Below are positions 3,540 to 63,659 of a DNA stretch of 64,000 nt, piece by piece. The position numbers and the translations under genes were made by a program. Position 1 is the stretch's first letter. Every line of letters begins with the position of its first letter. A model generated the notes under the pieces. The model was not told the DNA's origin, searched no databases, and worked only from the letters and a program-made list of their open reading frames with translations. Source of the stretch: Eledone cirrhosa (taxonomy: Eukaryota); contig OZ024743.1 in assembly GCA_964016885.1 (NCBI GenBank), positions 32,488,001 to 32,552,000 of the forward strand, read 5' to 3'.

Positions 3540-4716
3540 GCTCTTTGAGTCTCAGTCATTGATGTTGGCTAACTGGAAAGTTTGTTGAAATGAATATCAA
3601 GCCACTACCTGCAGCCTCAGATATTCAGGACGTATCGGAGGGTTCTTGCTGTTCCCAGCAAGCATACCTTTTGAAGTATTCCAAAAAGCGGGGTGGGGGC
3701 AATTTTCTTTAACCATCCCTGGAAACTCTTTGAGATAGTACCTAGTGCGCCTATGACAATCGGGACCACTTTGACTTCAAGGCCGTTCTAAATCCTTTTT
3801 ACCTCCCATTTTAAGTCCTGGTATCGGTTAATTTTCTCCCTCTCCTTCTCTTGCACTCTCGTATTGAATGGGCAGGCCACATCCTCAATCAGGCACAATC
3901 TTTTTTCCTTGTTCAAAACCACCAGGTCAGATCTATTGTGTTCCAGTTTCTTGTCCGTCTGTATCCTAAAATCCCACAGCACCTTCACCTGATCGTTTTC
4001 TATCACCGACTCTGGCTTATACTCATACCACTTCTCAGAATGTGGTAAATTGTTTACTTTGCATAGGTGCCAGTGGATCACCCGGCCCATCACATCATGT
4101 CTCCAGCCTTTATAGTGAGTCCGGGCTAGGTGTTTACACTCGGATACAATGTGAGCCACAGTATCCTCTCTCTCTCCACAGATCCTGCACAGTGGGTTAG
4201 CCTCCTCCTTGTAAATATGGTGTTTCAGCCACTTCGTTTTGAGGGCCTGCTCTTGCGCAGCCATTAGCATTCCTTCTGTAGCCTTTTTAAGGTCTCCTCT
4301 TTTCAACCAGTTCCATGTCTGTGGATCTCTGAATTCAGTTTTCTCAAAGAAGGTACTATGAAGGGATTTTTCATGAAGGTTGCTCTTTCTCCTTGTTGTT
4401 ATTTCCTCCTTGGATATCCCCTGGTCTATTGTCCTCTCCTTCAGTACAATTCTGAGCATTGGCTCCCTACTATCAGTCACGTATTTGTGTAGGTTGTTTT
4501 TCTCCATCTGAACACAGTCCTCTATGCTGATAAGACCTCTTCCACCTTCAGATCTCCTTAAGTAGAGTCTATCGACATCACTCCTCTTGTAGAACATGTT
4601 GTAGATAGTCAATAGCTTCCTAGTCTTCCTATCCATTTCTTTTTGTTCAGCAACATTCCATCTCAGAATTCCCGCACTGTACCTAATAATAGACACAGCT
4701 CGGGAATTTACTGCAC

Positions 4717-4717
<1 letters not shown>
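3540..4717 (-). mobile_element. 5'-truncated R4/Dong-like non-LTR retrotransposon (RT C-terminal part, CCHC knuckle, restriction-like endonuclease)
   Basis: CRICGEREDTVAHIVSEC, RHD, RSDLVV...DVACPF, KINRY. Premature TAG at 3788-3790; the frame continues VVPIVIGALG...LGTARTLRYVLNI to TGA at 3617. (TTA)n on both flanks. Confidence 0.88.
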
Positions 4718-4753
<36 letters not shown>

Positions 4754-5147
4754 GTTATTATTAAGAATTTTCAATCATTTATATCTTTATTTATTCATTT
4801 ATCTATTATTTATTATTACTATCATTATTATTATTACTATTATTATTATTATTACACTTATTCCTTTTTATTGTTGTTGTTGTTGTTGTTGTTTGGTTGT
4901 ATGCAATGAATCATTACTTTGGGTTTAGGATGGAGATCAAGTAATTTCCATTGCAAACAGATTGGATATAGGAGACAGCTGGAAATGGAATTGAGATGTT
5001 TTTGTGTTAAAATGGTAATATTTGAATAGCAAGAGCAAAATCAACAATGAAGACGAACTACAATGAGGAAAATGTTAATAATAACCAAAGATATATAAAC
5101 AAATTAATAAATTTAAAAAAAAGTAAGAAAAAGCTCATTGCTGGAAT

Positions 5148-7705
5148 GGTTGGTTGATTAGTTGGTTGGTTGGTTAGTTGGTTGGTTGGTTGGTTATTTG
5201 GCTGGTTGGTTAGTTGGCTGGTTGGTTAGTTGGTTGGTTAGTTGGTTGGTTGGTTGGTTAGTTGGTTGGGTGGCTTGTTAGTTGGTTGGGTGACTGGTTG
5301 GTTGGTTGGATGGTTAGTTGATTGGTTGGTTAGTTGGCTGGTTTGTTTGTTGGTTAGTTGGTCAGTTGGTTGGTTGGTTGATTAGTTGGTTGGTTGGTTG
5401 GTTGGTTAGTTGGCTGGTTGGTTAGTTGGTCAGTTGGTTGGTTAGTTGGCTGGTTGGTTGGTTAGTTGGTCAGTTAGTTAGTTGGTTAGTTGGTCAGAGG
5501 TTGGTTGGTTAGTTGATTGGTTGGTTAGTTTGTTGGTTAGTTGGTTGGTTGGTTGGTTGGTTGGTTGATTAGTTGGTTGGTTGGTTGGTTGGTTAGTTGG
5601 CTGGTTGGTTAGTTGGTCAGTTGGTTGGTTAGTTGGCTGGTTGGTTGGTTAGTTGGTCAGTTAGTTAGTTGGTTAGTTGGTCAGAGGTTGGTTGGTTAGT
5701 TGATTGGTTGGTTAGTTTGTTGGTTAGTTGGTTGGTTGGTTGGTTGGTTGGTCAGTTGGTTGATTAGTTAGTTGGTCAGTTGGTTGGGTAGTTGGTTGGT
5801 TGGCTGGTTGGTTGTTTAGTTGGTCAGTTGGTTGCTTGATTAGTTGGTCAGTTGTTTAGTTGGTTAGTTGGTCAGTTAGTAGGTTGTTTAGTTGGTTGGT
5901 TGGTTAGTTGATTGGTTGGTTAGTTGGTTGATTAGTTGGTTGGTTGGGTAGTTGGTCAGTTGGTTGTTAGCTTGGTTAGTTGGTTGATTTGTTAGTTGGT
6001 CAGTTGGTTGGTTGGTTAATTGGTCAGTTGGTTGGTTAGTTGGTTGGTTGGTTAGTTGGTCAGTTGGTTGGTTAGTTGGTCAGTTCGTTGGTTAGTTAGT
6101 TGGTCAGTTGGTTGATTGGCTAGTTGGTCAGTTGGTTGGTTGGTTAGTTGGTCAGTTGGTTGGGTGGTTAGTTGGTCAGTTGGTTGGTTAGTTGGTTGGG
6201 TAGTTGGTTGGTTGGTTAGTTGGTCAGTTGGTTGGTTAGTTGGTCAGTTGGTTGGTTGGTTAGTTGGTCAGTTGGTTGGTTAGTTGGTTACTTGGTCAGT
6301 TGGTTGGTTAGTTGGTCAGTTGGTTGGTTGGTTAGTTGGTCAGTTGGTTGGTTAGTTGGTCAGTTGGTTGGTTAGTTGGTCAGTTGGTTGGTTAGTTAGT
6401 TGGTTGGTTAGTTGGTCAGTTGGTTGGTTAGTTGGTCAGTTGGTTGGTTAGTTGGTCAGTTGGTTGGTTGGTTGGTTGGTTGGTTAGTTGGTAAGTTGGT
6501 TGTTAGTTGGCTGGTTAGTTGGCTGTTTGGCTGGTTGTTTAGTTGGTTGGTTAGTTGGTTGGGTGGCTTGTTAGTTGTTTGGGTGGCTGGTTCGTTGGTT
6601 GGTTGGGTGGGTAGTTGATTGGTTGGTTAGATGGTTGGTTGGTTAGTTGATTGGTTGGCTAGTTGGCTGGTTGGCTGGTTGGTTTGTTGGTTAGTTGGTT
6701 GGTTGGTTAGTTATTTGGTTGGTTAGTTGGCTGGTTGGTTGGTTGGTTAGTTGGCCGGTTGGTTAGTTGGTCAGTTGGTTGGTTGGTTGATTAGTTGGTT
6801 GGTTGGTTAGTTGGCTGGTTGGTTGGTTAGTTGGTTAGTTGGTTAGTTGGTCAGTTGGTTGGTTGGTTAGTTGGTTGGTTAGTTGATTGGTTGGTTAGTT
6901 GGTTGGTTAGTTGGTTGGTCAGTTGGTTGTTAGTTGGTTGGTTGATTGCTTAGTTGGTTGATTGGTTAGTTGGTCAGTTGGTTGGGTAGTTAGTTCGTTG
7001 GTTGGTTGGTTGGTCAGTTGGTTGCTTGATTAGTTGGTCAGTTGGTTAGTTGGTTAGTTGGTCAGTTAGTAGGTTGGTTAGTTGGTTGGTTGGTCAGTTG
7101 GTTGGTTGGTCAGTTTGTTGGTCAGTTGGTTGTTAGCTTTGTTAGTTGGTTGATTGGTTAGTTGGTCAGTTGGTTGGTTGGTTAATTGGTCAGTTGGTTG
7201 GTTAGTTGGTCAGTTGGTTGGTTAGTTGGTCAGTTCGTTGGTTGGTTAGTTGGTCATTTGGTTGTTTGATTAGTTGGTCAGTTGGTTGATTGATTAGTTG
7301 GTCAGTTGGTTGATTGGTTAGTTGGTCAGTTGGTTGGTTAGTTGGTCAGTTGGTTGGTTAGTTGGTCAGTTGGTTAGTTGGTCAGTTGGTTGGTTGGTTA
7401 ATTGGTCAGTTGGTTGGTTAGTTGGTCAGTTGGTTGGTTAGTTGGTCAGTTGGTTGGTTGGTTAGTTGGTCAGTTGGTTGGTGGTCAGTTGTTTGATTGG
7501 TTAGTTGGTCAGTTGGTTGATTGGTTAGTTGGTGAGTTGGTTGGTTGGTTAGTTGGTCAGTTGGTTGGTTAGTTGGTTGGTTGGTTAGTTGGTCAGTTGG
7601 TTGGTTAGTTGGTCAGTTGGTTGGTTGGTTAGTTGGTCAGTTGGTTCTTAGTTGGCTGGTTAGTTGGTCAGTTGGCTGTTTGGCTGGTTGTTTAGTTGGT
7701 TGGTT
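5148..7705. repeat. Complex (GGTT/AGTT/GGTC)n satellite, ~2.55 kb
   Basis: Direct reading; 4-nt periodic G/T-rich array. Confidence 0.95.
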
Positions 7706-7754
7706 ACAATTAAAGGGACCAAAATAAAATGGGCATAAGTGCAAGAACCCTAAG

Positions 7755-8060
7755 GTAGTTTCTCCCAAAGTGCATTCAGTTTTGTGGAACCCTTGGTGTC
7801 TGGGTTCCATGAAAAAATATAGAGGAGTATATTAATACGGCCCTTTACGGACTAAGTTCAAATCCCACAGAGGTTAACTTTGCCTTTCATCCTTACGGAG
7901 TCTATAAAATAAAGTACCAGTAATGTACTGGGTGATTGCTGGCTTTGTGCCATAAGTAGAAACAATTATTATTAAATAACAGTATTAGACTTTGGGGTTC
8001 CCCAAAAAAGTTTCTGAACCAAAAAGGATTCTGCGTTCGAAAAGGTTTGCGAAACCCATC
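7755..8060. mobile_element. hAT MITE (same family as 24974-25160) interrupted by a SINE at ~7840-7975
   Basis: Shared agtattagactttggggttcccc...aaagtttctgaa sequence; embedded SINE core aactttgcctttcatccttacgg. Confidence 0.65.
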
Positions 8061-8919
8061 AAACATTACATTGTCATTTAATGGTTTGTATGCCAGCTTC
8101 ACAATGCTGGCATGGGTTGGACATCCATAGTCTTATCCAACCCATGCTGGTAGTTATTCCACAGACCTTCATCCATTGAACCTGTAACCTATGTACCCTT
8201 TTTTTAATAGTATCAAAGTGAATACCGATGAAGAGACAAACACACGCATGCATGCATGCACACATGCACACGCGCACATGCACATGTATATGACAATGGT
8301 AAAGAAGTTCAATTTACAAACATAGGGTTCTTGGGTTTTATCCCATTACATGACACTTTGGGAAAATGTCTTCTATCATAGCCTGTTGTATATCATCATC
8401 TTCATCATCATCATTGCCATCATCATCATCATTTTAAAATGTCTTCATCTGACATAGGTCTTTTCTTGAAACATCAATTACTTCATTAGAACATAGGACA
8501 AAATGTCTTATGGTATTTGTTCCAACTCATTTGGCTCTAAATTCAAATCCTTCTGAGGTCGAATTTGCTTTTCATTTTTCAGGGTTGATAAAGTAACAAT
8601 GTAGGGTGGTGGATTAGCAGAATTGTTCAAGCATTGGATGAGATGCTTTGCTATATTTGTTCTGGTGCTTTGCTTTCTGTGTTTTTGTGTGGTAAACTTA
8701 ATCAATTATCTAGTTTAACCCCTCTACCTTGTCCTTGGGTGCCTTTAACAGAATTCACTTTATTGTAAGAATCTGAGTGAGAGCTCTTAAAATCAAAGTA
8801 ACAAATTGGCAGTCATTAGAGTGTCAGATTAAAAATGTCTTCTCATTTTGCAGCTTACTGCTCTTTGTATTCAAATACCACTGAGTTCAATGTTGTATTC
8901 CATCCTTTTAAAGACAATA

Positions 8920-9112
8920 AATAATTGTTTCTACTATTGGCACAAGGCCAGCAATTATCCAAGTGCATTACTGGTACTTTATTTTATCGACGCCATAAGG
9001 ATGAAAGGCAAAGTTATCCGCGGCAGGATTTGAACTCAGACCATAAAGGGACGTAACTCTATACTGCAAAGCATGGCGTCCGACCCTCTACCGATACTGC
9101 CAATCCACCACC
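8920..9112 (-). mobile_element. tRNA-like SINE family 1, full-length copy
   Basis: A-box-like TGGCAGTATCGG, B-box GAGTTCAAATCC, core ACTTTGCCTTTCATCCTTA.GG.GTCGATAAAATAAAGTACCAG, (ATT)n tail; at least 14 copies in window. Confidence 0.85.
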
Positions 9113-9176
9113 CTGGACAATAAATAATGTACCTGTCTAGTAAAAGACTTGGCTCTTCCCCAACTCTCCTTTTCCC

Positions 9177-9211
<35 letters not shown>

Positions 9212-10049
9212 ATCTATCTCTATCTCTCTCTCTCTCTCTGGAAGATATTGACTGTTCTGATTTGGAGAGGGATGGGCTCCACTAGGGTTTAAAGTGCCCA
9301 AGATGGCACCCCTATGATTTTATCAAGTGGTAAGGGTATTTTACTTTAGCTTTGATGGTTCTGACAAAAGAAAGGTTCATGAGAAAGTGTCCTTCTTTTC
9401 TTGACTAAGGGTTAAAAAAAAGAAAACTAATTTTCTCATGGCATATAAACCTATTTACATTTACAAACTTCATTAACCCTTTTGTGACCATGTTACTAAT
9501 AGGAATATGTTACCTTTGTGTTTTAAGTATTAAAATAATCAAGAATTCTGAGATGTTTCATGACATAATTAACTTTTGACTTCAAAATAAATACAAATAT
9601 TTAACTACTGAAATTTGATATCACCTTTCTTGTAATAGGATTACAATCCAGATATTAATTTATGTTTAAACACTTGAAGAGATGTATTTCAGGTGATTTA
9701 GTCTTTAATGCTTGACATCCTGTAATTATTTAGCATAAAATATCTAAAGATGGGTTTGTTAATTCAAATGTTTATAGTATCATTACTAGTGGATACATCA
9801 TTGTGAAAAATTGCAATATTTGAGTAAAGACTTTAATTTTTAATGTAATGAAGATTTAGTGCTGTTTCATGATTTTCAAGAATGTCTTATTTCATGTTGT
9901 ACAAGAAGATAAAAGTTAGAGGATTAAATGATTTTTGCCAATATAGATTACCACTAGCTTCCTTAAATTCAATATTATTAATGCTTGTTAAGATTTGGGC
10001 AAATAAGATAATGTGGGTAGTGAGGATAAGTGCTTTTACTTTTGTATAT

Positions 10050-11570
10050 ATTTCCAATTGATAACCACTCAATTGTAAAGGACTGGTAGGAATTATCTTG
10101 AGCCAAGTAATTTTTGTCTTGTTCAATAGAAAATAATTGGAAGTTCTTATGCGGCAACCTACTGCAAGCAACTGAAGAGACTTGTGGCTGGAGCAAAGCT
10201 CCAACCAGACAGAGGGTGACTTGGTGGTGGAACAGCATGGTAGATAGAGCCATTAAAAACAAAAGACAAGCATGGAAGGATTGGAAAATGGGAGGGGATT
10301 AGATACCGATACTCAGCCACTAAAAGAGAGGTTAGACGTCAGGTATACTTAGCAGGCAAGGAAGCCGAGAGTAGGAGGTTTACCAATGTTCTGTGACGAG
10401 AGGATCAGAGACATGAATGTTGAGAATGAATGGGAGAGAGAGAAACTACCCCCAACAGACCCAACAGAGGGGCCAGCTATTGAGGTTGACAACTTTTGGG
10501 TCAAAGAGGCAATTAAGGAAATGAAAAGTGGTAAGGCCACTGGACCGTCAGGGATAGTACCTGAGATGCTGAAGGCATCAGAAGTAGGAATAAACTGGTT
10601 GCACGCAGAGTCAATCAAGTTATATGTGGCGGAGTCATACCCAAAGACTGGTGCAGCAGTATTCTTGTAAATTGCTACAAAGGTAAAGGGAATGTTCTGG
10701 AGAGGAGCAATTATAGGGGCATAAAACTGATGGATCAGGTTATGAAAGTGACAGAAAGAGTGCTAGCACAACTAATTAGAGAAAGGGTAAAATTAGACGA
10801 GATGCAGTTTGGTTTTGTGCCTGGGAAAAGTACAACAGATGCCCTCTTCTTAGTGAGACAACTACAAGAGAGATTCTCAGAAAAGAATAAGCCACTATAT
10901 TTAGCTTTTGTTGACATAGAGAAGGCCTTTGATAGAGTACCTTGATCTGTCATCTAGTGGTCCCTAAGGAAATTAGGGTAGAGGAATGGCTTGTGAGGAC
11001 AGTCCAAGCTATGTACAGAGAAGTTGTCAGTAAAGTGAAAGTAGGAATGGAGTTTAGTGAGGAATTCCAGATACAAGTAGTTTATCAGGGTTCGGTCCTC
11101 AGTCTACGGTTATATGATGCCTGTGTGAGATGCATTATGCTGGATGGTAGTGAGACATAGGCAGCAACTGTAGAGGATATGTGATGGCTGAAGAGAAATG
11201 AAGCAAGCCTGCTCCGATGTGCAATGTCAATGTGCGTGAACAACCAAGCATGTATGGGTTGAGAGTGAAACTGTGTATAAGAGGGCTAAACTGTAGTGTG
11301 CAGGAGAGAAGACTGCAATGGTATGGCCATGTGATGCGCATGGAAGATGACCGTTGGGTGTAGAAGTGTCAAGAAATCCTGGTGGAAGGAAGACACAGTA
11401 GAGGAAAACCATGAAAAACATGGGCGGAGGTGGTGAGAGCAGACCTCAGATCACTGAAGCTCACAGAGGAGATGACGAGGGACTGTGACGAATGGTGAGA
11501 TGCTGTGCTGAAAAGGACCGTCCCACCCTTGCAAGCAGGGAAAAACGGACATAAAATGATGATGATGATA
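10050..11570 (+). mobile_element. Degraded RTE LINE (short 3' UTR subfamily) with internal deletions
   Basis: TWWWN, GKATGPSG, MQFGFVPGKSTTDA, FVDIEKAFDRVP; jumps from QGSVLS to RLYDAC near 11100; (GAT)n tail. Confidence 0.9.
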
Positions 11571-12923
11571 AATGAATATATGTTTAAATTGAATTGTTGT
11601 TATTTTTCTGTGTTCTTTTTTCGTTTTCTTTTTTTGCTATTAACCTCAACTTTAGAAATGAAAGATTGTTTAATTATGATATCATCTACACTGTGTTTTG
11701 ATAAGTTTGATTTCTAATCATCATCAGACATCTTAATTTAGGTTATGGAGGATATACTAAAGAGACTTCGAAAAGAATATTTTTAATTTTACTCATTTAA
11801 TTACCATATTTACAATGAAAGACCCTGCTGTGATTTTCAAATGATTTTGAAAATAATCAAGAATTGATAGGGTTTAGTAAAATAACTAATTTTCTAATTA
11901 TTAAGCTCATGTTTGGAAACATAACTTAACTTACTTAACACTTACTGAGGCCTCATTTAACCTGTAAGTTATACATAATTATATAAACAATACTTTATTC
12001 AGTGTTTCTGTGAAGAGGAAGGAATATTTAATGAGTTGATCAATGTCAGTTCACAACTAGTTACCCTACTTTTAGATGCATATCTACTTATCACTAACTA
12101 CTCAAATGTCTGTCTTTAACTTCAGCAACACCTCCCATTGATTAAACAGGTACATCACCATTAACAGCCCTCTCACTCCACCTCTCACCCACAACCATTA
12201 ACTTATCTCATTCCTTTTTTCAGTCATTGGTCACTGAAATAATGAACATTTCAGGTTGGTACACGTCCAAAGATTTGCAGGGATGCAGTATAATCAATTG
12301 AATTAACACCAGTATATGACTGATATTTGTTTTAATAACTGAGAGAGGGTGGAAAAAAAACAATTGCATTTTGTAAAGGATAAAAAGGCATGTACAATAT
12401 GCAATTAGCTCCGTCAATCACTCCAAATGCTGAGGATCTCCCATACTAAATACACATCCTTAACATAGCTAGGCCTGCATCTCAAAGACTGACCTTTTCC
12501 ATTAGACTCAGAAAATATTTCAGCCCCAACAATTACTGACCCTCTACAAAGCTGAGGGGAAAGTTTATAGCGTTGCTCTCACACCTGAGACAGTGTTGCT
12601 GCTACACACACAGACATTCTAGACTTCTACAAGAGAAAAGCAATTTAATTAATCAATATATAATCCCCCATTGGCTCCCTTTGCTATCACTACTAAAATG
12701 GCCACCATACCTCAAATCTGGCAGGTCTTGCACTCCTGACGTACACATCTCTTCTCCTCTTCTCCCACATTCTGTGTCAAGACCCCTAGTCGCTTCACTA
12801 ACTCCTATGTCCAACCTTTTCTGCTAAGAACATCAACCATCTTGAATACTCTCCCAACTCTTCTCTTCCTACATGTGTTGATTTGCCACAGTTTTAGTGA
12901 AAAATAAACAGAATCAATCTCAC

Positions 12924-16015: not shown

Positions 16016-16019
16016 TCAG

Positions 16020-18102
16020 GCCATATCGACCCAATAGAGGGACCAGCAGTGTTAGTCGAGGGGAGTATAATAAGTAAGGCAATCAAGGATATGAAGACTG
16101 GTAAGGCGGCTGGGCCTTCGGAAATAGTTGCTGAGATGCTGAAGGCATCTGGCACGGTGGGACACACCATGGTCACCCGCATAGTTAACCAAGTCGTACA
16201 AAACGGGGTTGTTCCGAAGGACTGGCATAGCAGCATCATCGTTAACTGTTATAAGGGTAAAGGAGACGCCCTAGATAGGAGTAACTATAGAGGCATTAAA
16301 TTAATCGACCAGGTCATGAAGGTCACGGAAAGAGTAATAGCGCAACTAATCAGAGAGAGAATTGACCTAGATGAAATGCAGTTCGGGTTTGTGTCAGGCA
16401 AAAGTACCACAGACGCTCTTTTCATAGTACGACAACTACAAGAGAAGTACCTAGCTAAAGGTAAACCCCTCTACTTAGCTTTTGTCGACTTGGAGAAAGC
16501 CTTCGACAGAGTCCCCCGCTCCATTATCTGGTGGGCTCTTAGAAAACTAGGCGTTGACGAATGGCTTGTGAGGGCTATACAAGCCATGTATAAAGAAACA
16601 GTCAGCAAGGTTAGAATTAACAACGAATATAGTGAAGAGTTTAGCGTAAAAGTCGGCGTCCATCAGGGCTCTGTTCTCAGTCCACTACTATTTATTATTG
16701 CCCTTCAGGCCATAACAGAGGAGTTCAAGACAGGCTGCCCATGGGAACTCCTATACGCAGACGACCTGACACTCATAGCGGAATCAATGGCCGAGCTAGA
16801 GAAGAAATTCCAAACATGGAAGCACGGCCTAGAGTCAAAAGGACTTAAAATTAACCTGGCTAAGACCAAAGTACTAGTTTGTAGGAAAGAAAACAAGGCG
16901 GCGGTCCCTTCTGGGAAATGGTCGTGCTCGGTGTGTAGGAAAGGCGTAGGTAGAAACTCCATTTTATGTCCTAAATGCAAAGTATGGGTGCATAAAAGAT
17001 GTAGTGGGATCACAGGTAGGCTAACTAAGAACATAGATTTTACATGTGGCCGGTGCTCTGGTGCAATAAGTAGCAGCAAGTGCCCACAAACTACTAGCTC
17101 TTTCAATTGCGCAGAGGGTTCTATAGAAATAGTGGACAGCTTCCGTTACCTGGGCGATAAAATCAGCAGTGGGGGAGGGTGCTGTGAAAGTACTGTAGCT
17201 AGAGTCAGAACTGGTTGGAAAAAGTTCAGAGAGCTTATACCACTATTAGCTGCTAAAGGGTTCTCACTAAAAATGAAAGGCAGGTTGTACGATGCCTGCA
17301 TACGAACAGCAATGCTGCATGGCAGTGAGACCTGGGCATTGTGTGCAGAGGATATACGCAGACTAGAGAGGAACGAAGCTTGCATGCTCCGCTGGATGTG
17401 TAACAGTAATATACGTGAACGGCAAAGCATAAACGAACTAAGGAATAAATTAGAGATAAGAGGGATCAGATGTTGTTTACTCGAGAGAAGGCTACGTTGG
17501 TATGGACACGTGATGCGCATGAAAGTCGATAGCTGTATAACAAAGTGCAGGGCAATAAAGATAGACGGTAGTCACGGAATAGGCAGACCTAGAAAAACCT
17601 GGGACGAGCTGATAAACTCCGACATCACACACTTACACCTCTCCAAGACAATGTCACTGGACCGAGACCTTTGGCGGTACTCAGTAACAGAGAAGACCCG
17701 CCTTACCTAAATATATAGTAAAACCTACTCCAGCCAGTAGGCATCTCTAACAAATACACCCCGTCCCACCACCCCCACCCGATCCACACCACCCCGTTCT
17801 ATGTAAAGTTATGTTGGTGCCGCGCCATCGAGGCCGAAACAAATGAGATCGTGTAGGTGTCACGACAAAAAAACACACAGTCCACGCTGTAATGTGGCCG
17901 TGTAGGCAACACGGTAAAAACCTCCCAGACCCACACTGTAAATGTGGTTGGTGTTAGGAAGGGCATCCAACTGTAGAAAACCTGCCAGACAGTCCTATGC
18001 GAGCAAGACAATCACTCTTGCCTCAAGTGGGACTACCCCCGTCCAAACCCATGCAAGCGTGGAACACGGACGTTAAACGTTGATGATGATGATGATGATG
18101 AT
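16020..18102 (+). mobile_element. 5'-truncated RTE LINE with uninterrupted 553-aa RT/PHD ORF (16049-17710), long 3' UTR and (GAT)n tail
   Basis: RT motifs DLEKAFD, GVHQGSVLSP, YADD, FRYLG; RTE C-terminal RRLRWYGHVMRM, GRPRKTW. Confidence 0.95.
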
Positions 18103-36494: not shown

Positions 36495-36615
36495 AATAAA
36501 CGAAGCTAAATTTTAAACATTTGACTTTTTTAACTTTATTTACATTACTCCGGAGTAACCGAGTGCTCCAGCCTGCATACTGAGGTGTTGGTATACAACC
36601 AACATATACTCAAAA

Positions 36616-36647
<32 letters not shown>

Positions 36648-36652
<5 letters not shown>

Positions 36653-38543
36653 CAATCAAAGATATGAAGATGGGGAAGGCAACCGGTCCATCGGGTATAG
36701 CTGCCGAGATGCTGAAGGCATCTGGGTCTGTAGGTCACACTATAACCACACGTATTGTTAACCAGGTAATACTAGAAGGTGTCATACCAAAAGATTGGTG
36801 CAGTAGCATCATTGTCAACTGCTACAAAGCTAAAGGTGATGCACTAGATAGAGGAAACTATAGAGGTATAAAGCTGATGGACCAGGTCATGAAAGTAACA
36901 GAAAGAGTTATAGCACAGTTGATTAAGGACCAAGTGAAACTAGATGAGATGCAATTTGGGTTTGTACCAGGAAGAGGCACCACTGATGCCCTCTTCTTTG
37001 TGAGGCAGTTACAGGAAAAGTACCTAGCTAAAAATAAGCCACTCTACCTGGCATTCATCGATCTCGAGAAAGCCTTTGACAGAGATCCACGTGCTATAAT
37101 CTGGTGGGCTATTAGAAAACTAAGAGTAGATGAATGGCTTGTGAAAGCTGTACAAGCCATGTATAAGGGATCAGTCAGCAAAGTTAGGATTAGCAATGAG
37201 TATAGCGAGGAATTTAGCGTACAGGTTGGTGTCCACCAGGGCTCTGTTCTTAGCCCTCGCCTGTTCATCATAGTCCTGCAGGCAATAACGGAGGAGTTTA
37301 AGACTGGATGCACATGGGAACTCCTGTATGCAGATGAACTCGCACTCATAGCTGAATCTATGGTAAGAAGAAATTCCAAACTTGGAAGCAGGGACTAGAA
37401 AGAAAGGGTCTCAAAGTCAACATGACAAAGACTAAGGTCCTTGTAAGTAGACGAGAAAACAGAACCCAGATCCCCTCAGGGAAATGGCCTTGCTCAGTAT
37501 GTAGGAAAAGTGTAGGTAGGAACTCCATTCTCTGCCCCAAATGCAAACAATGGGTACACAAGAGATGTAGCGGGATCTCAGGAAGCTTAATTAAGAACGT
37601 AGGCTTCACATGTAGCAGCTGCGCTGGGACAGCAAGCAGCAAACAGCCACAGGAAACAAGTACCACCAATCTCTGGGAGGGCTCTGTAGAAACAGTAGAC
37701 AGCTTCTGCTACCTAGGTGACCGAATTAGCAGCGGAGGTGGGTGTTCAGAAAGGACAATAACTAGAGTAAGAACGGGATGGAAGAAGTTCAGGGAACTAC
37801 TGCCACTGCTAGCTGCAAAAGGCTTCTCCCTCAAAATGAAAGGCAGACTGTATGATGCGTGTATCCGAACAGCAATGTTACATGATAGTGAGACCTGGGC
37901 GCTGAAGGTGGAAGACTTACGTACATTAGAAAGAAACGAAGCCTGCATGCTCCGATGGATGTGAATAGTAATATACGCGAATGGCAAAGCATAAATGAAT
38001 TGAGAGAGAGACTGAACATAAGAGGAATCAAATGCTGTGTGCAGGAGAGGCGGTTGCGCTGGTATGGACATGTGATGAGTATGAAGGATGACAGCTGCAT
38101 AAAAAGGTGCAGAGCACTAGAAGTCAATGGAAACCGCGGAGTGGGGCAGACCCAAGAAGACCTGGGATGAGGTGATAAAAGCTGACCTTACCCAATTACA
38201 CCTCTCAAAGGTGATGACACACGACCGTGACCTCTGGCGTCACGCAGTAATACAGAGTACCCGACCTCCCATGGGTACAAGCTGAAGCATATAGACAATA
38301 TGCCCCCCACACCCTCCCACTGTAAAATGGACGTGTAGGCGCCACGGAAAAAAAGCACCCAGCACTCACTGTAAATAAGGTTGGTGTTAGGAAGGGCATC
38401 CAGCTGTAGAAATCAAGCCAAAATCAGCTCCTGTATGAGCAAGGCATGGTCAGCCGACCAGACACTGCCCACAACAGGACAACCCATCTAACCCATGCTA
38501 GCATGGAAGAACGGACGTAAAACAGTGAGGATGATGATGATGA
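36648..38543 (+). mobile_element. 5'-truncated RTE LINE with PHD, frameshifted, long 3' UTR; inserted in (TA)n
   Basis: ORFs 36664-37398, 37422-37964 and 37955-38170 are consecutive parts of the same RT; YADE variant; (GAT)n tail. Confidence 0.93.
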
Positions 38544-38739
38544 TATATATATATATATATATATATTGTTAAAGGAAATACTGTATATATCTATCTAATG
38601 ATTCTTTGGACTTATATTTTTATATATAGCTCTGATTAATAATTATTTAATTAATTGAGCCACACCGTGAATGGTTGCCAAACTCATATATGTATCTGTG
38701 ACTATGTCTAATTATATATATATATACCCTTTGATTTTA

Positions 38740-38811
<72 letters not shown>

Positions 38812-38852
38812 ATGATATTAATAAATGGAAACTATATTTATAAAACCATATT

Positions 38853-38913
38853 TATTCTATTAGATATATTTCAAGGGTACCAAAACTTTGATACGCTCTC
38901 ATCAGATAAAATA
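38853..38913 (-). ncRNA. Minimal type I hammerhead motif, inverted copy
   Basis: Minus strand reads tattttat CTGATGA gagcgtatcaaagttttggtaccctt GAAA tatatcTA atagaata. Confidence 0.6.
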
Positions 38914-38996
38914 CAACGGTTCAAGTTTTTCCAGGAAAAACTTGAACTGTTAAGATCTCCTTCCTGGATATGTCAATATTTATAAAACAAACTTTG

Positions 38997-39057
38997 TATT
39001 TTATCTGATGAGAGCGTACCAAAGTTTTGGTACCCTTGAAATATATGTAATAGAATA
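38997..39057 (+). ncRNA. Minimal type I hammerhead ribozyme motif
   Basis: Stem I tattttat/atagaata, CTGATGA 39005-39011, stem II gtaccaaa/tttggtac, GAAA 39038-39041, loopless stem III, GTA triplet ending at 39049. Confidence 0.72.
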
Positions 39058-39359
39058 AATATGGTTTTATAATTAGTTTCCATTTATTAATATCATTTAT
39101 ATTATACTCCAGAAAAGTTGTTGAGTGCTTTGAATCAGTTATAAATATATTTGTTGAATTACCAACAAATTAAATATCCCTTTGCTTATATATATATACA
39201 CACACACACACATATATCATGACTCATACACTGTTCATTTTCCTGACATTTGTACATTATTCTATGTACTATACATACACCTTTGATGAGTTGTAGTGCA
39301 TTTGAGCACTGTACACAATAATTTCATTATTATTATTATATATAACTTGTCTCGACTTG

Positions 39360-39465
39360 GTTAACACCCATGTGTTTAATTTGCAAGGAGTCCTTTTTGA
39401 ATGAGGCGATGAAGCCATCGCGTTTGAGTAGACACCTGGAGGTGAGGCACCCCAATAAGAGATAG
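39360..39465 (+). mobile_element. hAT Charlie/Buster transposase BED-finger fragment
   Basis: TPMCLICKESFLNEAMKPSRLSRHLEVRHP matches the C..C...MKPS.L.RHL...H pattern. Confidence 0.75.
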
Positions 39466-39492
39466 CATACTTTCAGTCTCTTAGGGGCCAAT

Positions 39493-39688
39493 GGCGGTGG
39501 ATTGGCAGTATCGGTAGAAGGTCGGACATGCTTTCCAGCATAGTTACGTCCCTTTACGATCTGAGCTCAAATCCCGCCGAGTTTAACTTTGCATTTCATC
39601 CTTACGGGGTCGATAAAATAAAGTACCAGTAATGTACCGGGTAATTGCTGGCCTTGTGCCAAAAGTAGAAACAAAAATTATTATTATA
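39493..39688 (+). mobile_element. SINE family 1 full-length copy
   Basis: ggcggtggattggcagtatcgg head through (ATT)n tail. Confidence 0.85.
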
Positions 39689-40228
39689 TATGTATATATA
39701 TATATATATATATATACATACACACACACACGATACCACTAAGGCACCGATCATTAAAACTCGCAGAAAACCTCGTAGGTGGCAATCTAAAGCTACATCG
39801 GTGTGAACTATAACATTTGCGTCATGTGTGTGTGTATACGCAAACACGTTTTGGTGCAATTACCTGTGAGAGAGGGAGAGAGCGAACGACTGTGTGCGTG
39901 TCTTTAGGTGACTAGTTTAACTATTTTACTTATTCTATGTTCGTATGTATGTCTGTATATGAACGATGTACGCACTTAAAACAATATGAGCCCACACTTA
40001 CTAAGTGAGGAAATAGATATCGAAATTCAGAAATAAAAACTTGCGAGTAGATGAAATAACATCTTTAAGCGAGCATTCCCTCGGTTAGAACGATGAATGT
40101 TCCAGTTGGTGCGATTAACGGAACAGCCTGCTCTTGAAATTAACGTGCAAGGGTCTCGTTTGCCTTAAAAATGTGGGGAGGACACACCAACATTTGTTGA
40201 TTCTTAAAGGAGTATAGCAAAATACTAG

Positions 40229-41144
40229 TGTGTATGAATGTAACAAGGAGACGTGGTTTGTGTGTATAATATTTAATAAACAATTTGTGGATATATAGAA
40301 AATTATAGTTGATGCGTCAATGAATAGATGAGAGAATGAAACAAAGTTATTAGTTACCGCTTGGTTGCCAGGGTTACACACGCCTGAGTGAGTACTCCTA
40401 GCGAAAGCCAGGATGCGCCTGACCGAAAAGGCCAAATGAGAGAGAGAGAGCTTAACGTTGTTGGTTTTATAGGGTTCTGACCGGAAGTTACAGAAAGGGT
40501 TCTACTTCCTGTCTATTGGGGTTGTGAGGTTCACAACAAGGGAGGCAACTCCTGCTACATTACTTCCCGCCAGATTTTTAGAATATAAAAATCGAATGAA
40601 ATATGTATGTAGCAAGTTGTCGAGAATGTTGTAACAGGCATGAAAATTACGAAAAAAAAAAAATAATAATAATGTTTGCAAAAATCAATGATAGATATCA
40701 AGGTAGCCAACCGCTCTTGGCCAGAGAACGACTGGACATCTATCTATCCATCACCCAAAGATACAATGTAATAAAGTAAGAGAAGAGCTCAAAGTTCAAA
40801 ATATAGTTCACAGGTGTGTATGAATGTAACAAGGAGACGTGGTTTGTGTGTATAATATTTAATAAACAATTTGTGGATATATAGAAAATTATAGTTGATG
40901 CGTCAATGAATAGATGAGAGAATGAAACAAAGTTATTATTACCGCTTGGTTGCCAGGGTTACACACGCCTGATTGAGGACTCCTGGCGAAAGCCAGGAGG
41001 CGCCTGACCGAAAAGGCCAAATGAGAGAGAGAGAGCTTAACGTTGTTAGTTTTATAGGGTTCTGACCGGAAGTTACAGAAAGGGTTCTACTTCCTGTCTA
41101 TTGGGGTTGTGAGTGTCACAACAAGGGAGGCAACTCCTGCTACA
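40229..41144 (-). mobile_element. Miniature LTR element (TRIM-like): two ~330-bp direct repeats with a 255-bp non-coding interior
   Basis: Repeats 40229-40559 and 40815-41144, TG...CA termini; minus-strand TATAAAA and ATTAAA; purine-rich GGCGGGAAGTAA just before the downstream repeat. Confidence 0.65.
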
Positions 41145-48462: not shown

Positions 48463-49564
48463 ATTTATAGTATCCCAAGCTACCAGTTAGTGACTGTCAT
48501 TGTATCATTGAGTTCCTTCTGGCTATACTGTGTTGGTCTGTGTATTGAGGGTCATGCGACTGTGGTGTAGTGGTCAGTAGACTGTTTTCACTTGTTGGAG
48601 ACAGGGACATCAACATTATAGGCCTCCAAGCAAGGCAATGCACTGAGGCTCTTACATACACAACCACTATATATATAGATTACCATTGAGCCCCTGTAAG
48701 CCCCTTGTTGTGGTGGACCCCTGAGCTACTTCCCAGTGTGGCCATGCCTTAAGATGGCACTAGTTAGGGGAAATGGTCAGAGTACTGAGATAGCAGCTGG
48801 AATTGGTCAATGTAATGTGGTTACAGTTTGGAGTTGTTATGGTTAGTGTGAGTGGAGTGGTGAGTTTATTGTAATCAAGCTCATGTAAAGCTGGTAATAA
48901 ACTCAAGCTAGATGTGAGATATAGGCCATTTCAAACTGCTGTTTTAGTGATCAGTGATAAATACATATGATTTATTTATGTATGGACTATAGCTATATAC
49001 ATGTATAAGTAGTGTACATAATGTACTTACAAGTAACAAAACACCCTCTCTGGAATAAATGGAAGGAGAAAACAAAAGAACTAGACTGATTGATAAAAAT
49101 AAAAAGGCAATTCTTTACCAAAGTGCCCCACTCATTTGCCTTAAACATGGGGATTAAACTTCTTACAGGGGATGAGGTCTCTTGGAGAATTATAGGCTCA
49201 TGCCAACTGACCAACCTAACTCCATCTCTTCTCTGGCTCACGTTATCTAAGGGAGTGAGGAGTTAGTATGGTTACACTAGAGTTTCAGTTGGTCAGTGTA
49301 CTCTGGTTATACTACATTGTAGGAAATTAGTGTAATGTGAGAATTTGTGAAGGATGATGGGCTCGTAATTGTATGGTTGTAAGTTCAATTCCTGGACTGG
49401 ATGGTACATTGTATCCTTGAGCAAGACACTTTATTTTACATTTCTCTGCTCAACTCAGCTGGAAAAAATGATTTGCAAGACACTGGAGCCAAGCTGTATC
49501 AGCCATTTTTTTTTTTTCCTTGAACAACATCTGTTGCATAAAGAGGATACTGCCATGCATTGAT

Positions 49565-60517: not shown

Positions 60518-62010
60518 ATCATCATCATCATCATCATCATTTTACGTCCGCTTTTCCCTGCTTGCAAGGGTGGGACGGGTCTTATTCAGCACAGCATCTC
60601 TCCACTCGTCACGGTCCCTCGTCATCTCCACCGTGAGCTTCAATGATCTGAGGTCTGTTCTCACCACCTCCGCCCATGTTTTTCGTGGTCTACCTCTACC
60701 TCTTCAACTGGCATTTCCTGGCACTTCTTCACCCATCGGTCATCCTCCATGCGCATCACATGTCCATACCACCTCAGTCTCCTCTCCCGTACACTGCATT
60801 CTATCCCTCTCAGACACAGTTTCTCTCTCAACACATTTATGCTGGGTCGTTCACGCACATTTACACTGCACATCCAATGGAGCATGCTTGCCTCATTTTT
60901 CTCCAGCCGTCGCATATCCTCTGCGGTTGCTGCCCATGTCTCACTACCATGCAGCATCGCGCTCCTCACACAGGCATCATACAACCGGCCTTTCGTACGC
61001 AGGGAGAAACCCTTCTTCGTCAACAGAGGAAGCAGCTCCCTAAACTTCTTCCAACCCGTCCTTATTCTAGATACTATGGCCTCGGAACACCCTCCTCCCA
61101 TGCTAATCTGATCTCCCAGGTACCGGAAGCTATCCACCACTTCTATAGCGCCCTCTCGCATTTGAAAAATGTGTCTATCAGTGCGACTTCTACTGTCTAA
61201 TTTCCCTGTACATCTACTGCATACATATTTCTCCCTACCTGTTAGTTTGCCTGCTATCCCGCTACATCTCTTGTGTACCCAGGACCTGCATTGTGTGCAT
61301 TTTATAGAATTTATGCCAGTTCCTTTTCTGCATATCGAACATGGCCATTTCCCTGACGGAATCAGGGTTTTGTCCTCTTTTCTACTCATCAACACTTTTG
61401 TCTTAGCTAGATTTACTCTCAGTCCTCTTGCTTCAAACTGCCGTTTCCATAGCCGGAATTTATTCTCTAGCTCCTCTACTGATTCTGCTATCAGAGCCAG
61501 ATCATCAGCATAGAGAAGTTCCCATGGACAGCCAGTCTTAAACTCCTCTGTTATGGCATGGAGGACTATAATGAACAAGAGCGGGCTGAGGACCGAACCC
61601 TGATGTACTCCTACTTGTATCTGGAATTCCTCACTAAACTCCATTCCTACCCTGACTTTACTGAGAGTACCTCTGTACAAAGTTTGCACTGTCCTCACAA
61701 GCCATTCCTCAACACCTAGCTTCCTTAGGGACCACCAGATGACAGATCGGGGTACCCTATCAAAGGCCTTCTCTAGGTCAACAAAGGCTAAGTATAGTGG
61801 CTTATTCTTCTCTAAGAACCTCTCTTGCATTTGTCTCACCAAGAAGAGGGCATCTGTTGTACTCTTCCCAGGCACAAAACCAAACTGCATCTCATCTAGT
61901 TTGACCCTTTCTCTAATTAGTTGTGCTAAAATCCTTTCTGCCACTTTCATAACCTGATCTATCAGTTTTATACCTCTATAATTGCTCCTCTCCAAAGCAT
62001 CCCCTTTACC
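60518..62010 (-). mobile_element. 5'-truncated RTE LINE with PHD, short 3' UTR subfamily
   Basis: Track ORF 60661-62103 from GKGDALERSNY onward (YADD, FRYLG); frameshift near C-terminus; (GAT)n tail; possible short TSD tgac. Confidence 0.94.
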
Positions 62011-63659
62011 TGACGTTCTTAATAATAAGCCATTAGAACACAAGTCTCTGATATTCTGATATATTTGGTTCAACATAAACACTATTAGATCACTTCTATG
62101 CATTGCGAAACTTATGTTAGAGAGCCTCTCCTAAAATCCAGGAGGAAATGCATTGGATGTGACCTTGTTCAGGGTCTCTAAAGCTGGTGTGAAGGAAAGA
62201 GGAAGGCATCCTCAAACTCAAAACCCGGCCTGATTGCTTGCAACACAGTGAACTCTACTAAAGGCATCTAAGAGACAAGTAGTCTGTTGACCCACCATCC
62301 TTTCAGTTTTTAAATAATACATCAACTTCTGAGTACTCTCACTATGATAAAATTTGAGCCATGTAATAGTGAGATATCTATTTACTGTTAGTGGAAAGGG
62401 CCATTGATGATTGGACAAATTTAGATTCGATGACCATTTATATAACTGATAATTGTTAAGCTAATTGTCTACTACTTAACTCAATCATTTTAAAGCATAT
62501 ACTATCATGTATATATTTAATAAACATAAATTAATTTTGATATTCATTCAATTACAGTATTCAAAGCTGCATAAAAATTTACATTTAGAATTTATTTCTT
62601 CATGTAAAATGTTTTGTTGCACTGTTTGCAATCTGGTCATTGTTATGGTTCCACTATGACATCAAGAGATTAATAATGCATGTAAAATAAATTTAACAGT
62701 TTTTGTGTATTTTTTGAATGGCCAAAATGACTCTTCTATGGTGTAATCGCTTTAATTTCAATACAAGTACAACTTCTTAATATTAACTGTTATCTACGAG
62801 ATAGGTGGAATGGTACAAATGGTGGAATAGGTGTATGCTGTATAAAAAGAGACATAAGTATAGTGCTAATTGTTTCCATATTTCAGATTTAAATCTCTGG
62901 CAGGTGAATTTCATGAAATCTTATCAAACAAAGAATGATTAAATAGTATTTCCTTTCCAATACCAACACAACATTTCTCCTACTCTGCCACCATAATCTA
63001 ATACTGCATTACCATGTTGACAGAATAACACTAATCATTATTATTTTTGTTCAGCTTTTCATTTTTGTTTTTTGTTTTGTTACCAGTTTCCAATTTTAGC
63101 AACAAAATAATGCTGAACCATTGAAATTTCCCATGATATTTCTGTAAATCATGACAAATTTACAGAATTTTTTTTTAACCAATAATTATTCAATGTATCT
63201 TCTAGTTTTAAATCTTGACATATTACATTAATACAGAATGCTTGCTGGGTAAAATTGCTCCAGTTTTTATGTCTATGTTATTGACAATTTCTGACAATTT
63301 GTTTTTTTTTTTTTCCTTCAGTAAAACTAAGTTATTTGTTAACATTCAAGAATCATATTTTCTTGTTCGTTTATTCCATTGGCTTTTAAGTCTTAAAAAC
63401 ACTACATTATCAATGCTGTTAGAATGACATTTCTATCAGTACAGAAATAAATAGATGAGAAACTTCAATGAATGGTTTTGAAATAAGAATAACAACAACA
63501 ACAATAATAATGATGAAGATCTCTTACATGGTGATTAATAGTCTCAATGATACTACTACTACTAATAATAATTTCTTTCATTAGTACAAGGTCACAGAGT
63601 AATTGAGTAGCAATTATTCTATTGATACCAGAGATTTCAAAGGAAATGTTATAAATATA

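Follow-up and report, generated by a model that had tools for sequence, protein, structure and literature searches.

A foldback relic of a Hydra-clade Penelope-like element family carrying two opposite-strand hammerhead motifs in Eledone cirrhosa

Penelope-like elements (PLEs) of the Hydra clade are described in passages of PMC8557442 as having a C-terminal GIY-YIG domain without the CCHH motif, CxCX5C, CxxC, CxH, RW[K/R] and DKT motifs, a 3′ hammerhead, and (TA)n targets. The same passages give, for PLEs in general, an insertion form in which the 5′ end carries a truncated, inverted copy and one of the ends bears a tail. The supplement of that paper contains a single octopus Hydra family, Hydra-1_Obim. 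The minimal type I hammerheads of metazoan PLEs are portrayed in parts of Cervera and de la Pena 2014 (PMC4209133) as mostly solo motifs with a conserved core, a long stem II, a palindromic stem III, and a highly conserved G10.1-C11.1 pair. Such motifs need a partner of the same sense and cleave poorly even as dimers, and opposite-strand pairs 100–700 bp apart were already noted there. The non-LTR retrozymes treated in parts of Cervera and de la Pena 2020 (PMC7229834) are short, non-coding and AT-rich, contain a type I hammerhead, and form head-to-tail tandem arrays.

A priming system has been described for PAc, an Anolis PLE of the Poseidon group (Frangieh et al. 2024, PMC11167929). As set out in parts of that study, its protein in vitro nicks and extends both strands of an AT-rich target, initiates reverse transcription at two internal sites that bound the tail, and uses uncleaved RNA by preference; these parts do not link double-strand priming to inverted pLTRs. 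Titles and abstracts of the papers listed for PLEs and twin priming contained nothing on such priming as a source of inverted pLTRs. The Penelope element of D. virilis has, according to parts of PMC2377424, an internal Inr-type promoter and an intron 46 nt downstream. Passages of Porath et al. 2017 (PMC5625713) report unusually much dsRNA-forming sequence and hyper-editing in octopus and frog. The frog signal is partly explained by a palindromic Harbinger repeat of Xenopus, and a lizard Penelope is heavily edited; for octopus, an exceptional dsRNA-forming fraction of 4.4e-3 is given without a repeat annotation for that signal. In the giant squid, 235 Hammerhead_1 hits are listed in a part of PMC6962438. 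We found no report of the family described below, or of such copy numbers in cephalopods, in the literature on hammerheads, Penelope and octopus RNA editing, and a term search of PMC9989829 returned no mention of Penelope.

The analysed stretch, called the window, comprises 64,000 nucleotides of E. cirrhosa DNA. The unit of interest spans positions 38810–39189 and consists of two pLTRs, one inverted and one direct, followed by a tail of 92 nt, all embedded in (TA)n. Its parts are as follows.

38740–38809, no strand: (TA)n microsatellite, left insertion flank
38810–38932, minus strand: inverted pLTR copy, without the tail and without 44 nt of the direct copy (38950–38993)
38853–38913, minus strand: minus-copy type I hammerhead motif; core 38905–38869, nominal cleavage between 38861 and 38860
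38917–38949, no strand: centre hairpin formed by back-to-back pLTR 5′ ends that overlap in the TCC/GGA mini-palindrome 38930–38936
38930–39097, plus strand: direct pLTR copy, beginning 4 nt inside the ACTATCC motif
38997–39057, plus strand: plus-copy type I hammerhead motif; nominal cleavage after 39049
39098–39189, plus strand: tail, present on the direct arm only
39187–39215, no strand: (TA)n/(CA)n, right insertion flank; TAT shared with the tail end

The initial annotation recognized inverted arms of about 105 bp, which are real: 38811–38916 and 38994–39097 align over 106 and 104 nt with two mismatches and two one-base gaps, and contain an ungapped core of 87 nt with 94% complementarity. 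Its limits of 38811–39097 hold for the arms, but the unit starts at 38810, and the tail to 39189 had been missed. The 16-bp hairpin that it assigned to the spacer itself (38917–38949) is merely the place where two pLTR 5′ ends meet. The 44-nt loop 38950–38993 belongs to the pLTR and has no counterpart in the left copy. The sequence common to genomic copies runs from about 38930 to 39189, and the tail corresponds in full-length copies to the 5′ leader from the pLTR towards the ORF start. Directly to the right of the unit (39227–39339) lies another very high-copy repeat, with the highest summed depth after the arm. Farther along the window, a direct repeat of about 330 bp (40228–40559 and 40814–41144; 97–100% identical, 585 bp apart) is present. 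Long reverse-transcriptase ORF fragments of non-LTR retrotransposons, which we take to be RTE-like, occupy 16016–17710, 36559–37964, 60661–62130, 10353–10945, and 3788–4774.

Copies of the arm are dispersed over the 3.0-Gb genome (846 candidates; 42 listed matches at 93–100%), and a 31-mer of the window subfamily has 2,004 exact genome matches, with none for the control. In loci L043, L045, L046, L047 and L048, an ORF is followed on one strand by a 3′ UTR of about 1.1 kb, the same pLTR, and the tail. The full-length copies L068, L069 and L086 start with an inverted pLTR, and their tail leads into the ORF start; in L069 and L086, the pLTR with the hammerhead is repeated at both ends. In longer copies, ORF fragments with YRDD and a GIY-YIG-type VIY..YIG, which the window copy lacks, immediately precede this pLTR. 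The neighbourhood of GIY-YIG/RT Penelope ORFs, which the initial annotation proposed to look for, thus exists in these copies. Since longer copies place the same pLTR behind a Hydra-type RT and GIY-YIG ORF, the window unit is identified as a Hydra-family insertion that lacks the ORF.

The motif content of the ORF copies supports assignment of the putative parent family to the Hydra clade. Locus L043 encodes CNCRIKSNC (the CxCX5C linker), CHLCIEE (CxxC before E), and N..CRH (CxH after N). Loci L073 and L086 encode RLRWRA, with R for K of RWK, and SDKT, with DKT replacing DKG, and both align with the RWK and DKT of relatives. The CCHH motif is absent from the translated ORF copies. Of 7,999 proteins scored in a homolog search, 49 reached E<=1e-20, many of them about 700 aa long; the named ones come from coral, sea cucumber, Octopus sinensis and Argonauta, and one is named a GIY-YIG domain protein. 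Hydra-like ORF pieces with 45–70% identity occur in 5 of 30 loci drawn from matches of a clade-wide hammerhead pattern. The target is (TA)n in the window flanks and in most 3′ flanks of other copies. None of nine translated copies has an unbroken ORF, the longest open stretch being 474 aa, and Pfam detected neither an RT nor a GIY-YIG domain in 25 window ORFs and 23 neighbouring ORFs. Two features fit less well: the tail of about 92 nt exceeds the 30–40 bp of other PLEs, and the element length of about 3.7 kb exceeds the usual Hydra length of less than 3 kb.

The Penelope-like origin with inverted pLTRs proposed initially is thus supported and narrowed to a Hydra-clade family. The hammerhead sequence differs from that of Hydra-1_Obim, so the family is another one. 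Its own features relative to Hydra-1_Obim are a palindromic stem III of 8 nt and a stem II closed by G.U or A-U, and it is further characterized by the tail of about 92 nt, the 3′ UTR of roughly 1.1 kb, and motif copies that number in the tens of thousands over its subfamilies. The window unit is a new family member of the Hydra clade and an ordinary PLE foldback relic. An RT/GIY-YIG fragment adjoining the foldback in L011 and L012 was rejected as the parent, as it comes from another PLE, a relative of which, in L022, carries a hammerhead-like motif of its own. There, the family foldback sits at the broken end of that PLE (L011:1500–1850 and L012; RT, Cys-rich linker, GIY-YIG), and the two loci, on different contigs, carry the same whole composite. 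L003 suggested that hammerhead and ORF might be antisense to each other, a reading discarded because this locus is internally inverted and other copies are co-oriented.

Both arms carry CTGATGA..GAAA cores, at 39005–39041 on the plus strand and 38869–38905 on the minus strand. By itself, a loose version of the core pattern is no rarity: the window has 10, compared with a mean of 4.6. Each copy has the 8-bp stem I described in the initial annotation, a stem II, and a UH site. The plus copy has stem I at 38997–39004/39050–39057, a GUA triplet, and a stem II closed by G.U. Its stem III, ATATATGT, is self-complementary with G.U, occurs in 10 of 195 motifs, and has a self-duplex energy of −3.2 kcal/mol, the same as the common form. 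The minus-copy stem III, ATATATCT, has a private mismatch at 38863 (1 of 195 motifs) and a self-duplex energy of −1.0 kcal/mol. The claim of a complete core on each arm therefore stands for the plus copy, but the minus copy breaks one stem III pair. Bases 39047 and 38863 of the window are rare among relatives in the contigs of sequencing run X1. The contigs of four such runs, of unspecified kind, included none that spanned the unit.

The 195 motif instances come from fetched loci filtered for a T-rich 5′ strand of stem I, and overlaps may count twice. Stem I pairs are held in 184–192 of them, seven stem II pairs in 174–186, and the stem III palindrome in 187–191, counts that are inflated by relatedness; 131 of the 195 have the length of the window subfamily. 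Two-sided changes distinguish subfamilies, including ATATATAT to ATGCGCAT and, in stem II, G-C/A-T and T-A/C-G. As the stems covary across subfamilies, selection appears to have acted on the hammerhead while it was part of the transposon; the swaps point to a dimer-type hammerhead with a palindromic stem III as the target of selection in the parent element. Loss of the core or of stem covariation elsewhere, named at the outset as grounds for abandoning the motif, is not what the other copies display. By its CUGANGA core, GAAA, UH, and covarying stems, the motif qualifies at the sequence level as a type I hammerhead, and the palindromic stem III anticipated for it recurs in most of the 195 motifs. 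It shares the conserved core, long stem II and palindromic stem III of the metazoan PLE hammerheads in PMC4209133. It departs from them in its 8-bp stem I and in the closing pair of stem II, which is G.U or A-U, the canonical G-C being found in 3 of 195 motifs. The covariance-model check proposed earlier came out negative: the 10 matches at E<=1 in an Rfam scan of 37500–40500 included no hammerhead family. The MIR2599 match in that scan (48 bits against a cut-off of 120) was set aside as a generic hairpin match. Hammerhead-like motifs of other families were observed in the genome (L022:700–770, L042:2524, L054:18, L081:7101, L084:7130), several of them with a palindromic stem III (ATGCAT, ACTAGT). 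In the window unit, the hammerheads are probably passengers.

The clade-wide hammerhead pattern, which covers several subfamilies, has 61,061 exact matches in the genome, about one per 49 kb, and the reversed control has none; the number is a lower bound, as mutated copies are missed. It lies above the approximately 9,000 in Xenopus and below the 120,000 that axolotl retrozymes reach according to a part of PMC7229834. The first 100 listed matches cover 11.4 Mb of one contig and are not a random sample. Fourteen of the 99 gaps between them are no longer than 500 bp, with 12 pairs back-to-back, none face-to-face, and 2 in tandem (p 0.0005 for 12 against 0). Extrapolation from this sample gives about 7,300 foldbacks in the genome (95% interval 3,900–12,200). 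Visual inspection of the first 100 matches of the window subfamily identified 10 back-to-back and no face-to-face pairs. In 22 foldback pairs, the cores are separated by 89–352 nt, and the tail is on one arm in 15, on neither in 7, and on both in none. The window arms are 0.936 identical, against a median of 0.957 for these pairs. The examined loci were the best-scoring or first-listed matches rather than a random sample.

The 3′ ends of copies cluster at about +176 and +272 from ACTATCC. The 5′ ends lie at ACTATCC in 23 of 46 alignments of loci selected for the hammerhead. Among 29 tail-bearing copies, for which the sole selection criterion was sequence downstream of the cleavage site, 14 start between −10 and +15 of ACTATCC and none at the cleavage site. 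All 11 of their inverted partners stop at +175 to +184, an end that single copies use too. The ACTATCC motif has 552 genome matches, or 278 with five upstream bases added; of 30 inspected copies with an intact motif, 10 begin at it or within 4 nt, and 19 continue upstream. We infer that a pLTR promoter starts transcription at ACTATCC, with the short copies representing complete cDNAs of the 5′ part of the RNA. Some PLE families retain a spliceosomal intron in the 5′ leader. In several subfamilies here (L088–L117), a splice-donor-like G|GTAYGT lies about 40 nt from both ACTATCC, which it follows, and the hammerhead core, which it precedes. TACTCCAG opens the tail (39104–39111 in the window), and window positions 38966–38975 read GGATATGT, without GT. 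An intron delimited by the donor-like motif and TACTCCAG, if present, would place the hammerhead within intronic sequence of the element's 5′ leader.

It is very probable that the unit is an ORF-less Hydra-clade PLE insertion in (TA)n, composed of two back-to-back hammerhead-bearing end repeats and a single tail. It likely arose when an uncleaved RNA was copied twice, and has likely decayed neutrally ever since. We propose that the RT/endonuclease of the element would cut the (TA)n target, and that reverse transcription would be initiated at two constant positions (about +176 and +272) inside a transcript starting at ACTATCC. Priming would proceed from both sides of the cut on uncleaved RNA, and each short cDNA would run to the RNA 5′ end. 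The two cDNAs would then be joined 5′ end to 5′ end, giving a back-to-back palindrome with the tail on one arm. PAc resembles this scheme in its two internal RT starts bounding the tail, its AT-rich target, and the lack of any sign of hammerhead-cleaved RNA as template in the parts of PMC11167929 concerned. It differs in that the PAc starts lie inside the ORF and its tail measures 30–40 bp, whereas both ends lie in the 5′ leader here.

The main rival to double priming, a doubtful one in our judgement, shares the transposon origin. The 3′ end of the first cDNA would have snapped back at TCC-A-GGA and primed copying of itself, and the endonuclease would have resolved the second end at +176. The inversion centre of the window unit lies within the TCC-A-GGA mini-palindrome, which also fits such self-priming and keeps double priming short of proof. 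Several pairs with arms 98–100% identical agree with fold-back as well, and Craig et al., in a part of PMC8557442, ascribe both the tail and the inverted pLTRs to endonuclease resolution. However, the junctions of other loci occur at many offsets, with filler or deletions, and the stop of all 11 inverted partners of tail-bearing copies in one narrow interval is directly explained by two priming events.

The great number of short units could suggest an independent non-autonomous element, MITE-like or a retrozyme, that transposes as a unit, and animal retrozymes have been proposed as pLTR-derived in a part of bioRxiv 10.64898/2026.07.22.740005. We regard this origin as improbable. Every foldback has its own junction and arm spacing, so the foldbacks arose separately, and tandem same-strand neighbours account for only 2 of 99 gaps. 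The unit is short, non-coding and AT-rich with a type I hammerhead, like the non-LTR retrozymes of PMC7229834, from which its back-to-back pair and direct link to a coding PLE set it apart. Classification as a non-LTR retrozyme was rejected, since the locus has an inverted arrangement and no array of head-to-tail 150–450-bp hammerhead units.

The predicted folding energy of the unit region is −167.7 kcal/mol, with a z score of −23.9 relative to 100 shuffled sequences. For a read-through transcript, prediction gives a 120-bp hairpin rather than a ribozyme, and the hammerhead fold is predicted to be abolished by the foldback on both strands (predicted stem I probability 0.0 on either). The predicted stem I probability is 0.42 for the isolated minus arm and only 0.0001 for the plus copy from its own start; therefore, predicted folds of monomers are a poor guide to activity. 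When a minus-strand transcript is synthesized, the complementary arm emerges ahead of the minus hammerhead, which is thus predicted to be captured. Splice-site and Pfam screens, which are weak and miss short exons, identified no convincing exon in the window or within 100 kb on either side, and Pfam on the 25 window and 23 neighbouring ORFs gave nothing meaningful for a host gene. The best-looking small exon candidate is at 49167–49246 on the minus strand (80 nt, open frame, pyrimidine tract, GTAAGA donor). The host intron in which the minus copy had been placed as sense is thus unconfirmed.

Least probable of all is the reading, advanced in the initial annotation, of a co-opted host pre-mRNA switch in which the minus hammerhead cleaves when free and is silenced and ADAR-edited in the foldback: the very stable predicted foldback, the ability of the isolated minus arm to form stem I, and the abundant dsRNA and hyper-editing of octopus and frog are in its favour, but the minus hammerhead is predicted to be captured, its stem III is privately damaged relative to the family form, the window copies lie on opposite strands and not in the same-sense pairs described in PMC4209133, the arms are no better kept than those of siblings, thousands of like units are expected, and the weak screens found no host exon. 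A passive role of the unit as dsRNA and ADAR substrate is plausible from the predicted fold. Like the hyper-edited Harbinger of Xenopus and lizard Penelope, it is a self-folding repeat that would form tight dsRNA without a partner; editing was shown for those repeats in the part of PMC5625713 concerned and is only predicted here.

The single window locus is ordinary transposon debris, and its value lies in the family-wide counts. More than 61,000 motif copies make two questions of PLE biology countable: how inverted pLTRs originate, and whether the hammerhead cuts the RNA that is copied. We tentatively speculate, while rating the joint claim as rather unlikely to hold in full, that Hydra-clade PLEs strewed thousands of short tight palindromes across the genome by double priming on uncleaved, promoter-initiated RNA, and that these foldbacks are a main source of the excess dsRNA and A-to-I hyper-editing of octopuses. 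Their ends would then record how inverted pLTRs form and, as none of 29 copies starts at the cleavage site, that the hammerhead does not cut the RNA template of transposition. The foldbacks could be a large pool of ADAR substrates: the estimated 3,900–12,200 short foldbacks would be ready-made for the enzyme in the octopus lineage.
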